Shown here: positions 17,356 to 23,404 of the stretch, piece by piece | Layout of the letters: every line of letters begins with the position of its first letter | How positions within the stretch are numbered: the first letter of the stretch is position 1 | Assembly (NCBI GenBank): GCA_024720975.1 | Contig: JANJXX010000007.1 | Location: 3,816 to 35,815 of the forward strand | DNA: 32,000 nt | Source: Thermoproteota archaeon | GTDB lineage: Archaea > Asgardarchaeota > Njordarchaeia > Njordarchaeales > Panguiarchaeaceae | Reading direction: 5' to 3' | Program-made: the position numbers and the translations under genes | The notes under the pieces: generated by a model | Seen by the model: the letters and a program-made list of their open reading frames with translations, nothing else | The model's database searches: none | What the model was told of the DNA's origin: nothing

Positions 17356-17441
17356 GGGCCGGTTGCCTAGAGGTTATGGCGTCCCGCTTACGAGGTTCCT
17401 GAGAAACGGGAAGGTCGGCGGTTCGAGTCCGCCCCGGCCCA
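17356..17441 (+). tRNA. tRNA-Val (anticodon UAC) with 13-nt canonical intron (37/38)
   Basis: The cloverleaf is GGGCCGG..CCGGCCC-A, with anticodon stem TCCCG/CGGGA and loop CTTACG[intron 17393-17405]A. The BHB has a central helix 17387-17390 with 17400-17403 (C-G, U-A, U.G, A-U) and 3-nt bulges CGA and AAA. Confidence 0.85.
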
Positions 17442-17478: not shown

Positions 17479-17661
17479 GATCATCTTCTACATGTTCGTG
17501 CCTTCTAGTTTTAGGAGCCATTTTCCAAGATTTCATCAGTAGTGCATTCGGGATTTTTCGTCAGTTAGTTGCTACCGTCCTAATTATGTCTGGGAATTTT
17601 TGGCTTATTTAATCTGTTTCCTACTTTATCATGATAAGAGTAGTGCGATTCGGGAGTTCAG

Positions 17662-18498
17662 ATGGTAATAAGGGCAATAGCAGCTTTTGATTCATTTGGA
17701 AACGAGCTCTTCTACGAGGCTTACGCATCATTTACTCCTAATTTTCAACTCCTATCCAGGATATTACTTGGAATGCGAGAGCATTTACCAAAAGAATACG
17801 ACACAGTTAATATGGGCCAGTACAAAATCGCATTAACCATCTCGTCAGACTTAGTACTACTCATTTTAGCTGATAGAGTTAATGGCGACCAGGAGCTCGA
17901 AAAAGTTGTGCGATTCTTACATGAATCTGCGAGAGAGATTTTTAGTGGAAGTGCTAAAACCCAAGAAGACCAGATAGAAAAATTCCGCGAAAAGACCTAT
18001 GAAGCTATTGCTATGTTACCAGTAAAGTGCACTCTAACTGGCTATGGTGGAGTAGGGAAAACTACTATTGTGCGTCTGGTAGCCCGAGGAGAAAGACTTA
18101 CTAAACATATACCCACAATTCTAGCGGATGTTGAAGAGATAAAGATCGAGGGTATAGATCCCTACAAGGTGACATTATTTACCGTAGCTGGACAGCCCCA
18201 ATACTGGCGTACTTGGATGCTCACTACAGAAGGATCAGATTTCGTGATGTTAGTTACAGACTCAACTTACGAGGATGTAGAAAGGCTTCAAAAAGAAATC
18301 ATTCCGTACTTAATGAAGATAACTCCTTATTCACGATTTATCATAATAGCAAATAAGCAAGATTTACCTAACGCACTGCCGCCCTCTGTTATAGAGGAGA
18401 CCTGCGGCATACCTTCGTTTCCCTTGGTGGCGATACGAGATGATGCCAAGGAGAAGTTTGTTGAAATATTGGCTACAATGATAAGAGAGCTACCTTAG
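17662..18498 (+). CDS. Small Ras/Arf-superfamily GTPase with an N-terminal roadblock/longin-like domain
   Basis: The C-terminal half carries G1 GYGGVGKT, G3-like TVAGQ and G4 NKQD. The N-terminal 115 aa or so shows a beta-beta-alpha-beta-beta-beta-alpha pattern (IRAIAAFDSFGNELFYE...QYKIALTISSDLVLLILAD...). That fold is inferred only. Confidence 0.7.
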   Translation: MVIRAIAAFDSFGNELFYEAYASFTPNFQLLSRILLGMREHLPKEYDTVNMGQYKIALTISSDLVLLILADRVNGDQELEKVVRFLHESAREIFSGSAKTQEDQIEKFREKTYEAIAMLPVKCTLTGYGGVGKTTIVRLVARGERLTKHIPTILADVEEIKIEGIDPYKVTLFTVAGQPQYWRTWMLTTEGSDFVMLVTDSTYEDVERLQKEIIPYLMKITPYSRFIIIANKQDLPNALPPSVIEETCGIPSFPLVAIRDDAKEKFVEILATMIRELP

Positions 18499-18975: not shown

Positions 18976-19863
18976 TTGAATAAAAAAAGCCCAATTATAG
19001 CATGCCATAAAGAGGATATTGATGGTATTGTCTCGGCAGCACTTATTCTTAGGATTTTTCCTGATGCGGTAATAATTTTTGCAAAACCAAATGATATAAC
19101 AAGAATGAAAGCGAAGTTTGATATCGTGTGCGATTTACCAAAACCAAAGTTTTGTGATGTATGCATAGATCATCATATGTCTAATTATCAGCAATTATTG
19201 GAAAGCAATAAACTTTCGGAAAAAGATTTAGTGGATCCTAATGCGAGTTCAGCTGCAAGGTTAGTTGCCAAGTATTTTAATCTAAATGATGAGATTTCTA
19301 GAGAGCTTGTTGAAATGGCAGATAAGGCGGATTCTGGGTATTTTGATGAAGATTTAACCACTCTTGATTTGCTGATAAAACATAATTCAAATGATCCAGC
19401 AAAACTACACTGGATAGCTAAAAAACTAGCTCAGAATGGACGAAAAATATTTGATGATCCCGAGTTCAGAATGGAAGCATTTAAACTAAGACACTTAATA
19501 CTTAAGAAGGACGAGATAATAAAACTCGTGAACAGCATACTTGAAAAGGGCATCAAAGCTTGCATTTTTGATTGTCGCAGTCTAGATCCAGCTCTTGGTA
19601 GGATAGCCCCTACAGTTTTTTGTAGAATCGGGGGAAAAGCTGCTGTTAGTATATATTTTGATGATGTAGGAAACATAAAGGTTTCCATACGAGTTGATGA
19701 TACAGAATTTGATGCCGGTAAATTTGCAAGCCTATATGGTGGTGGAGGGCATGCGAAGGCTGCGGGAGTTGTTTTCGCAGATGAAAATTCTCTAGCTAAG
19801 TTCCTTAGTGACTTTATCAGTATCTTCAAGGAGTACTCAATAGCCTTCTTGAGAATTCTCTAA
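18976..19863 (+). CDS. DHH/DHHA1-family phosphoesterase (NrnA-like)
   Basis: It has the motifs HKEDIDG, CIDHHMSN (DHH) and YGGGGHAKAAG (DHHA1 GGGH). It uses a TTG start. Confidence 0.8.
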   Translation: MNKKSPIIACHKEDIDGIVSAALILRIFPDAVIIFAKPNDITRMKAKFDIVCDLPKPKFCDVCIDHHMSNYQQLLESNKLSEKDLVDPNASSAARLVAKYFNLNDEISRELVEMADKADSGYFDEDLTTLDLLIKHNSNDPAKLHWIAKKLAQNGRKIFDDPEFRMEAFKLRHLILKKDEIIKLVNSILEKGIKACIFDCRSLDPALGRIAPTVFCRIGGKAAVSIYFDDVGNIKVSIRVDDTEFDAGKFASLYGGGGHAKAAGVVFADENSLAKFLSDFISIFKEYSIAFLRIL

Positions 19864-20930
19864 CGTTTTTTGTATACGTAATTCTGGATCACTATTCGTT
19901 CTTCTTCCTTCAACTCATATATATCGAATACAATCTCATTGAGCTCATGCATAAGGAATCCAATCTCGCTTTCTAATTCTTTTCTCTCTGGTCGTTCAGA
20001 CTCCTGCTGAATAGATAAATAGGTTCTAGTTTTTTCAGAGATTTCCTTGGAGTACTTAATTACTTCTTTTCGAGTATTCTCTTCCGCCACCTTTACTGGT
20101 AATATGTTGACGTAGGGTGGCATATACGAATACCATCTGCCTTTCTTGGGTCTTTTAGTTCTCTTCATCAGTCTAGGTGAGTATTGCTTAAAGAAAAACT
20201 CCAGTGTCTCGGAATTAAGAATCCCGAGCGTGTACCAAAGTGCATCGTCGTCATTTCCAAGAATTTTTCTAGCCTCTCTTCCAGCTTCAATAAAGTTCTC
20301 TACATTCAAGGTTGCTTCATTTACTTTCTTCCAATTTTCTGCGTACATTTTTTGCTCTTCATAACTAAGCCATTTTCGTAAGAGTATTGTTGAGTCAAGC
20401 ACATAGTATAGACCTTGTTCATCGATCGCAAAACTTTGCTGTCTTGAAAAGAGAGGGCTTATGATTTTCTTCTGCTCAAAAACCTTTGGATCAAGCGGAT
20501 CCTCAAGTTCCCACCACTTCTTATTCCACGTAAAGACAGCAGCTCTTCGTTCGAGAACTAGTTTGCCACTCTCAAGCCACTTCATTATATTTACGTATTT
20601 GTTCGGCAGATCTGGAAAATGCTTTTCAGAGGCGTATATGATATAGAATCCCTTCCAAGTAAAGCCGAAAGGTCTGATATCGCGTCCCCGAATAATTGGT
20701 TTGAGGGGCTCCTTTTCTAGTGAGTATTCGTCGACGAGGCTTTGTTGTACTACATACAGATAAGGGACACCTGTCCACAGTCCCCTGTGAACAGCGAATA
20801 GCTGGTCAAGTCGTATAGTATCTGTTCTTATTTTTTCCCAGATGGTTCTGTATTTTTCGCTGATTATTGGCATTTTGAATACTTGCACGTATGTCCATGT
20901 GTACTCAAGGGGCATTGTGTATATCACCAA
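19860..20930 (-). CDS. Stand-alone TaqI-like C-terminal specificity (target recognition) domain protein with no methyltransferase domain
   Basis: The pattern LDQLFAVHRGLWTG...IIRGRDIRPFGFTWKGFYIIY...YVNIMKWLESGKLVLERR...KKWWELEDP...LGILNSETLEFFFKQY...ILPVKV matches my memory of the TaqI_C / type IIG TRD. There is no N6-MTase motif (NPPY/DPPY) and no FxGxG. Confidence 0.55.
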   Translation of the reverse strand: MVIYTMPLEYTWTYVQVFKMPIISEKYRTIWEKIRTDTIRLDQLFAVHRGLWTGVPYLYVVQQSLVDEYSLEKEPLKPIIRGRDIRPFGFTWKGFYIIYASEKHFPDLPNKYVNIMKWLESGKLVLERRAAVFTWNKKWWELEDPLDPKVFEQKKIISPLFSRQQSFAIDEQGLYYVLDSTILLRKWLSYEEQKMYAENWKKVNEATLNVENFIEAGREARKILGNDDDALWYTLGILNSETLEFFFKQYSPRLMKRTKRPKKGRWYSYMPPYVNILPVKVAEENTRKEVIKYSKEISEKTRTYLSIQQESERPERKELESEIGFLMHELNEIVFDIYELKEEERIVIQNYVYKKR

Positions 20931-22063: not shown

Positions 22064-22159
22064 GCCGGGGTTGCCGAGCGGTACGGCGTCGGCCTGCTAA
22101 CCAAAAGGCTGATAGCCGATGGCGCTAGCGCCTCGCGGGTTCAAATCCCGCCCCCGGCA
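22064..22159 (+). tRNA. tRNA-Ser (anticodon GCU), class II, with 14-nt canonical intron
   Basis: The acceptor is GCCGGGG/CCCCGGC-A and the anticodon stem TCGGC/GCCGA, with loop CTGCTA[intron 22100-22113]A. It has a long variable arm TGGCGCTAGCGCCTC and T-arm GCGGGTTCAAATCCCGC. Confidence 0.88.
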
Positions 22160-22162
22160 TAA

Positions 22163-22221
22163 TGATAATGATGATGGTTCAACCGGCTGAGAAATGATGA
22201 TAGCATGTCTTGCTGAAGTTT
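22163..22221 (+). ncRNA. C/D box sRNA
   Basis: It reads ATGATGA (C, 22168-22174), a 12-nt guide TGGTTCAACCGG, CTGA (D', 22187-22190), GAA, ATGATGA (C', 22194-22200), a 12-nt guide TAGCATGTCTTG, then CTGA (D, 22213-22216). This is textbook archaeal architecture, and it lies between two tRNAs. Confidence 0.85.
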
Positions 22222-22252
22222 AAGTAAGCAAAACTTGCATAAAATAAAGATA

Positions 22253-22338
22253 GGGCCGGTAGCTCAGCCCGGTAGTCCTCATCCGAAAGCGTCCGGCTCT
22301 TAACCGGATGGTCGCGGGTTCAAATCCCGCCCGGCCCA
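22253..22338 (+). tRNA. tRNA-Lys (anticodon CUU) with 12-nt non-canonical intron in the D-arm
   Basis: The acceptor is GGGCCGG/CCGGCCC-A, the anticodon stem-loop TCCGG-CTCTTAA-CCGGA, and the T-arm GCGGGTTCAAATCCCGC. The D-arm closes (GCTC/GAGC) only after 22276-22287 (TCCTCATCCGAA) is removed. Confidence 0.8.
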
Positions 22339-22497: not shown

Positions 22498-22663
22498 AAA
22501 CTCGCATCGGGACCGAAAGCTAAGCCGCGCCACGCCGACCTGAGTAGTGTGGGGGAGACCCCACGCGAAAGGGCGGTGCTGTCCGTTCCTAGAGGAGCGG
22601 ACGGCCATAGGGCGCGGGAAACGCCCGATCCCATTCCGAACTCGGAAATCTCGATGCGAGTTT
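22498..22663 (+). other. 5S precursor processing structure: leader/trailer helix with BHB geometry
   Basis: Leader 22498-22512 pairs with trailer 22649-22663 (15 bp, one G.U). The central 4 bp are 22513-22516 (CCGA) with 22642-22645 (UCGG). The bulges are AAG at 22517-22519 and AAA at 22646-22648, on opposite strands. Confidence 0.7.
22519..22647 (+). rRNA. 5S rRNA, circularly permuted gene (3' part, hairpin linker, 5' part)
   Basis: 22519-22588 carries the 3' strands of helices III and II, helix V, the loop E AGUA/GAA motif, helix IV with a GAGA loop D, and the 3' strand of helix I. 22589-22594 is the CUAGAG linker. 22595-22647 carries the 5' strand of helix I, helix II GGCGCGG (complementary to CCGCGCC at 22525-22531) and loop C CCCAUUCCGAACUCGGAA. 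Confidence 0.8.
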
Positions 22664-22676
22664 GACTCCTTTAGAA

Positions 22677-22720: not shown

Positions 22721-23404
22721 ATGACTACCCCTACTGAGGTCTATGTGTTAAAACTTAAACCTCTTCTTGATCGAGGAGCTATTAGTATTTTACTAAACAA
22801 GGGTGACTCTGAAGTCCTCTTTATAGGAAATGAAAGTTATAAGCACATTCTCCAAACAATGTTATCGTTCACCTTACAAACAAAAAGTAGGATATCCAAA
22901 GAATATATAAGCGAGCTTACACGGCGTGGTATCCGATTAGATTTTGGTGAGGTTGATTTCTATCTGCTAAACTTCTCAATGATGAATCTTAAAGTTTACT
23001 TGGCAACATATGGAGACGTTTTAATATCTTGTGTCTTTGCTAATAACTTTCCGTCAGTCAATGAATTTATTGATATTGTGCGTGATTTAACTACTACTAA
23101 GGATATCGGCAAACACGGAATCAACAAAGAGGAAATAAAGAATCTAAAGGCTCTAATTTTGAGCGCTAGAAGAAGCGCCAGTTCAGGTATTAAAGAAGAG
23201 CTTTTGCGTAATTTAAACGACATTCGCGAGTTTCTTGAAAGGTTGCAGGATCAGGCTTTGGAACCATATTTAGCATCCATAAAAAGGGTATTGCTAATTC
23301 TAGAACAGAAAACCGAGATTACAGACGAATTAAAGTTAAAGTTAAGAAGAATATTATTATTGCTACTAAAAAGTATATCCAAAAGGTTTAAGGAAGAGAT
23401 TTAA
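22721..23404 (+). CDS. Hypothetical protein, possibly with a roadblock/LC7-like N-domain
   Basis: The ATG at 22721 (MTTPTEVYVLKLKPLL...) is the first start outside the 5S gene. The ORF-track start at 22547 reads through the rRNA. The fold guess rests only on alternating beta patterns. Confidence 0.55.
   Translation: MTTPTEVYVLKLKPLLDRGAISILLNKGDSEVLFIGNESYKHILQTMLSFTLQTKSRISKEYISELTRRGIRLDFGEVDFYLLNFSMMNLKVYLATYGDVLISCVFANNFPSVNEFIDIVRDLTTTKDIGKHGINKEEIKNLKALILSARRSASSGIKEELLRNLNDIREFLERLQDQALEPYLASIKRVLLILEQKTEITDELKLKLRRILLLLLKSISKRFKEEI

Follow-up and report, generated by a model that had tools for sequence, protein, structure and literature searches.

A longin-ArfL GTPase of the Njordarchaeia with threonine at the G3 aspartate position and an invariant aspartate on strand beta-2

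Introduction

A single open frame on the forward strand of a Njordarchaeia contig (positions 17662–18498 of the window, i.e., the whole 32,000 nt stretch of DNA analysed) encodes a protein of 278 aa. A preliminary description, made from the letters alone, took it to be a roadblock/longin-like domain fused to a small GTPase of the Ras/Arf superfamily in which the aspartate of the G3 motif is replaced by threonine. This raises the questions of what family the protein belongs to, whether a GTPase altered in this way could still act as a switch, and whether the fused domain regulates it.

Gene and domain organisation

A Shine-Dalgarno-like sequence (GGGAG, 17652–17656, +), recognised by inspection, lies 5 nt upstream of the ATG. 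The promoter scan of the locus used a sigma-70 consensus and was uninformative. Full-length homologues at 26–86% identity exist, ruling out an assembly artefact, and the gene is the sole close ArfL match in the assembly. The N-terminal domain comprises residues 1–117 (17662–18012) and the G domain residues 121–276 (18022–18489). They are joined by a linker of about three residues, with a helix ending at 117 and a strand starting at 121 in the predicted model. All motifs named in the preliminary description are present in this frame: G1, the P-loop (GYGGVGKT, residues 127–134, 18040–18063), G3 (TVAGQ, residues 174–178, 18181–18195), in which Thr replaces Asp and the presumptive catalytic Gln178 is kept, and G4 (NKQD, residues 231–234, 18352–18363). 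The G2 threonine is Thr152 (18115–18117), preceded by Pro151, and four residues beyond it, on strand beta-2, lies Asp156 (18127–18129). We regard the identity of the product as a longin-ArfL fusion as highly probable.

The N-terminal domain is a longin

Of the two halves, only one gave a family in profile searches: residues 121–251 match Pfam Arf (E = 1.8e-13), residues 1–118 match no Pfam family, and residues 1–120 gave nothing significant in Pfam, NCBIfam, PDB-sequence or Atlas-feature searches. The longin identification came solely from structure search. In models built from homologue alignments (pLDDT 87 and 90, the latter for the longin domain), residues 3–117 fold as strand-strand-helix, three strands, helix-helix, which is the longin topology (by DSSP), with no N-terminal helix; the predicted orientation of the two domains is defined (pTM 0.84). 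The fold search ranked longins first. VAMP7 is the top structural match to residues 1–117 (Z 13.4, rmsd 3.2, 115 residues aligned), Sec22b matches over the whole domain length (Z 13.2), and the longins of adaptor, COPI and TRAPP complexes likewise align over the whole domain when it is folded alone. Foldseek returned AP sigma and zeta-COP (E about 1e-5 to 1e-6).

Roadblock proteins in general cover just the first 90–100 residues of the domain; MglB, for example, aligns to residues 1–99 only (Z 10.3). A roadblock/LC7 assignment was rejected, as this fold needs an N-terminal helix and a single C-terminal helix, and the model has a strand at its start and two helices at its end. As first suggested, then, this archaeal protein combines a domain of the roadblock/longin superfamily, specifically a longin, with a small GTPase of Arf-like type. 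By hhalign, the longin domain matches neither the family of a 360 aa protein often encoded next to ArfL genes (see below) nor that of the ORF at 22721–23404. The N-terminus being the longin domain itself, there is no N-terminal amphipathic helix, and membrane targeting, if any, would therefore be through partners.

Distribution

The fusion had been presented as an unusual architecture, but it is published (PMC10933270) and occurs across the Asgard phylum. A full-length profile matches 116 of 151 genomes sampled across the phylum, often several times each, and 210 clusters (50% identity) score E<1e-30. The closest named homologues, both of this protein and of the MglA of the same genome, are from Njordarchaeia, and remoter homologues come from Jord-, Freyr-, Thor-, Loki-, Hel- and Baldrarchaeia. 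The full-length protein matches the structures predicted for Thor and Loki clusters across about 270 residues (TM 0.91 and 0.89). Klinger 2016 is said to have described an Asgard ArfL group with an N-terminal longin. Longin-GTPase fusions are in print in Tran 2024 and Zhu 2025; in strain MK-D1, 26 of the 74 small GTPases are fused to a roadblock or longin domain (Tran 2024, PMC10933270), and longin N-termini are also recorded for Arf-like proteins of Asgard archaea (PMC11914678). Being on record already, the fusion adds nothing new on links between Asgard archaea and eukaryotes. Each of the 14 genomes of the order has a homologue; the retention of an Asgard-specific family throughout an ESP-reduced order suggests an important role.

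Family placement of the G domain

The G domain has the sequence traits of the Ras superfamily (G1 GxxxxGK[ST], G2 Thr and G4 NKxD) and the Ras fold, with sequence matches to Arf1 and Cdc42 and a fold match to Arf6 (Z 21). It lacks the DxxG of G3, as does MglA, an accepted member of the superfamily. In a tree of 92 G domains from which the trait columns had been removed, the protein sits in a clade of Thr-type sequences (support 100/99), which is nested in a group of 65 rows, mostly longin-fused GTPases and including DxxG types (95/92). This group is separate from the RasL, Rag-like and MglA proteins of the same genome, and the branch between the Thr-type clade and MglA has a support of 100/100. 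By eye, the motifs of the 65-row group match those of the ArfL-labelled sequences seen in the supplement of bioRxiv 2024.02.28.582541, which lie outside the tree.

Profile scores agree: G domains of the clade score 150–190 bits with an HMM built from D-type members of the family, but 22–56 bits with an MglA HMM (164 and 36 bits for this protein). An AU test of the Thr-type clade joined to MglA gave p = 0.10, so that the tree alone is undecisive and the assignment is carried by the profile scores and the shared longin domain. The protein is a member of the Asgard ArfL family.

Published Asgard longin-ArfL GTPases (Vargová et al., bioRxiv 2024.02.28.582541; 'Rag/Arf-like' fusions, PMC10933270) share the architecture, family motifs and predicted domain arrangement of this protein, but here Thr or Ser takes the place of the G3 Asp, together with a fixed Asp on beta-2, and the gene lies apart from that of the 360 aa partner. 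Likeness to ArfR/AArf and eukaryotic Arf extends to the best Pfam and PDB matches, NKQD in G4 and the N-terminal longins of some AArfs (PMC11914678). True Arfs differ in having Leu-Asp in G1, DxGG in G3 and an amphipathic helix, where this protein has Tyr-Gly in G1, Ala in G3 and a longin N-terminus; the two ArfR/ArfL papers compared (including PMC11914678) both place ArfL outside the Arf clade. Rag/Gtr proteins also combine a GTPase with a domain of the roadblock/longin superfamily, but their roadblock is C-terminal. The present protein ends with its G domain and has no match to PF04670, whereas the Rag-like proteins of the genome do match and form a separate clade (100/98).

Those three Rag-like GTPases (C24:43703-44563, C24:91794-92660 and C7:2120-3130; loci L017-L019) lack both the G3 Asp and a canonical NKxD, and only three RasL proteins among the eight Ras-superfamily members of the genome keep DxxG. 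The genome also encodes a canonical MglA, its gene immediately following an actin-like gene; some 1.5 kb from it, on the other strand, is a Robl_LC7 (MglB-like) gene (L016:1003-4956; C19, about 71500–75450).

The G3 aspartate and the acid on beta-2

The Asp-to-Thr change in G3 is clade-wide and not a one-off mutation. Thr or Ser occupies the position in 12 of the 13 genomes of the order in which the motif was read, the lone exception being a divergent homologue in a 0.9 Mb genome. Residue 174 drifts among T, S and A within the clade, and Asp156 is invariant in 30 clade members, with no changes observed where 3.9 would be expected, judging by the other family members (P about 0.02), a degree of conservation about equalled by Ala155 and Leu172. 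Among 151 distinct G domains of the family, an acid four residues beyond the G2 Thr (+4) is found in all 33 of the T/S/A type versus 66 of 117 of the D type, but this covariation is statistically weak because the rows are related, the Thr members represent just one or two events (a single origin is not rejected, p = 0.51) and more than half of the D-type members (56%) have the +4 acid as well. Asp156 aligns with Asn52 of Arf1, which faces the G3 Asp across the beta-2/beta-3 hairpin as its cross-strand partner in GTP-bound Arf.

The same change is known from MglA, where it is offset by Asp58 acting as the Walker B residue (PMC11016934; bioRxiv 2022.06.23.497301), four residues past the G2 Thr54 (PMC3000849). 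Group 1 MglA proteins (Myxococcus, Thermus, Asgard MglA1) have Thr at the G3 Asp position (Thr78) and Asp at +4 (Thr54-Asp58), an arrangement shared here. They are a separate lineage by HMM and in the best tree, and differ in having an intrinsic Arg finger and a separate MglB GAP, and no fused longin. The Arg finger of MglA sits just before the G2 Thr (PMC4316618), a position held by Pro151 throughout the Thr-type clade.

From the loss of the G3 Asp, the preliminary description had suggested altered Mg/GTP handling. Mg handling probably is changed, but the acid looks relocated, to Asp156 on beta-2 as in MglA, rather than plainly lost. We infer this relocation, and consider it well motivated rather than demonstrated. 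The MglA-like active site was probably reached by convergence. Searches of the literature, of incomplete coverage, found no report of such a change in an ArfL lineage, so that an earlier mention is possible; they likewise returned no TxxG outside MglA and no biochemical study of ArfL, and in the part of the ArfL literature covered, neither the combination of Thr/Ser in G3 with a beta-2 Asp nor the separation from the 360 aa gene was found described. As TxxGQ is treated as diagnostic of MglA (PMC3000849), these ArfL proteins could easily be misnamed.

Relatives with both aspartates exist (family f21). Another Thr group carries Glu at +4 (families f11 and f17), and its f17 sequence is near-identical to one from a Baldrarchaeia cluster. 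The Njordarchaeia Thr group, the Thr-Glu group and the two-Asp relatives fall together in one sub-clade of the full-length tree (98/83). Members of the Thr-Glu group (L102:1271-2119, L105:1379-2269 and P0070), from Baldrarchaeia and one other family, still have the 360 aa gene adjoining. It is possible, though on balance doubtful, that in an ArfL sub-lineage, and independently of MglA, the Walker B acid shifted from G3 to beta-2, perhaps twice (as Asp in Njordarchaeia and as Glu in the group containing Baldrarchaeia), by way of a two-Asp state still present in living relatives; Mg-GTP binding would then hang on the register of beta-2, like the beta-screw switch of MglA, under a longin/roadblock platform. 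The natural series within ArfL (G3 Asp only, both aspartates, beta-2 acid only) provides a test bed for a Walker B shift in a P-loop GTPase.

Gene neighbourhood and candidate partners

The GTPase gene is flanked by a tRNA gene and a DUF424 gene, and has no operon partner at this locus. Farther downstream, an ORF at 22721–23404 (+) encodes a protein with a weakly roadblock-like N-half and a helical C-half, a possible partner by linkage: the ORF is found close to the GTPase gene in each of the five genomes of the genus, and directly downstream in three. Support for the roadblock-like start suggested for this ORF is weak. Residues about 5–127 match archaeal proteins of 118–119 aa, one of them named roadblock/LAMTOR2 (TM 0.65–0.69 by target, in an Atlas model with a pTM of just 0.44), but the Pfam match, to MAPKK1_Int, reaches only E = 0.11 and occurs in one of five homologues. 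No convincing match was found in other families, outside the genus. A complex prediction for the GTPase with residues 1–135 of this ORF scored 0.17 against a mark of 0.32, which favours neither side. Part of the DNA that splits the GTPase from the roadblock-like gene here is an ORF at 19860–20930 (−) with a TaqI-like C-terminal specificity domain; the corresponding loci of related genomes lack a homologue of it.

In eight Asgard families, the ArfL gene has a co-oriented neighbour that encodes a protein of about 360 aa, and in the 0.9 Mb genome a weakly roadblock-like gene comes next. The family of this protein occurs in 79 of 101 Asgard genomes (e.g., L050:1585-2658 and L032:7197-8408), and sequence searches give weak winged-helix matches only. 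The member in the present genome is at C11:203232-204329 (L080:1489-2583). The gene is found in 13 of the 14 genomes of the order, and loss of the partner in Thr-type genomes was accordingly rejected; it is unlinked and divergent in the Thr-type Njordarchaeia, adjoining ArfL in none of their loci that were read. The arrangement is similar to an operon of roadblock, GTPase and DENN genes predicted by Liu et al. (bioRxiv 2020.10.19.343400), and the 360 aa protein may be the DENN-type protein of that operon, a DENN/longin-type regulator. Family f4 (L027:4190-6061, L028, L029, L030, L031 and L033) has a different gene 5′ of ArfL, in the same orientation, whose product of about 625 aa gives weak HEAT-repeat matches.

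Proposed mechanism and alternatives

We propose, as a somewhat better than even reading of the whole, that the longin-ArfL protein is an active GTP/GDP switch. Asp156, the cross-strand neighbour of Thr174, would take the Walker B role (contacting Mg or the P-loop Thr) like Asp58 of MglA, and Gln178 would be the catalytic residue. With no intrinsic Arg finger, hydrolysis would be slow and would need a GAP in trans. The longin domain would serve as a platform for dimerisation or docking onto another longin-type protein, rather than as a GEF or GAP in cis, and the best candidate for this partner is the unlinked 360 aa protein. Membrane or nutrient signalling is the probable, though speculative, cellular context. 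Longins are paired with Arf-like or Rab-like GTPases in SRbeta-SRX (SRP receptor), FLCN-FNIP, C9orf72-SMCR8 and TRAPP; in SRbeta-SRX and the longin/DENN GAP or GEF complexes the two are separate chains and the action is in trans, and the likeness to the present protein is one of domain pairing.

If the fusion instead made the protein a self-regulating unit, the longin, as monomer or homodimer, would act as GEF or GAP on the G domain to which it is fused, so condensing an MglA-MglB or TRAPP-Rab pair into one chain. Longin and roadblock dimers do act as GTPase platforms (PMC10933270), the defined domain orientation is conserved in the Thor and Loki models, and the usual partner gene is unlinked in this clade. 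With so short a linker, however, a longin-dimer platform would have difficulty reaching the switch regions of its own protein, and across the Asgard archaea this fusion is also found in proteins with a normal G3 whose genes adjoin that of the partner. A partner in trans is likelier, and we consider self-regulation unlikely. Marginally less probable still is a weakened or pseudo-GTPase, in which nothing makes up for the missing G3 Asp and the protein is a loose nucleotide binder or a scaffold. The variation of position 174 (T/S/A), the long branch of the clade and the absence of a G3 Asp from the three Rag-like GTPases as well would fit such a protein. It is at odds with the near invariance of G1, G2, Gln178 and G4 among homologues over about 40% identity, with the fixed Asp156, and with the retention of the gene in every genome of the order.

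An MglA origin of the G domain, or recombination with MglA, with 22721–23404 encoding its MglB-like GAP, is very improbable. Asgard MglAs also have TVAGQ, the AU test is compatible with a joined clade, and the roadblock-like gene is adjacent in three genomes of the genus, but that gene has no convincing match outside the genus, homology to DxxG ArfL proteins is full-length, longin included, and the genome has its separate canonical MglA with a Robl_LC7 gene nearby. Assignment of the protein to MglA itself was rejected on the HMM scores and the missing Arg finger, the AU test being undecisive.

Other elements in the window

The tRNA genes at 17356–17441 and 22064–22338 were mislabelled or missed by ARAGORN (anticodon 'stop' or unknown) and have good Rfam scores; they probably contain introns. 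Just upstream of the roadblock-like ORF is a circularly permuted 5S rRNA gene (22498–22666, +), in which the 3′ part (about 22518–22587) lies ahead of the 5′ part (about 22597–22647). A short hairpin closes off helix I. The splicing-type junction, made by complementary arms, resembles a bulge-helix-bulge, and cutting and joining there would restore the 5S consensus. The genome has no other 5S match. In 12 of the 14 genomes of the order there are similar matches, all below the Rfam cut-off.
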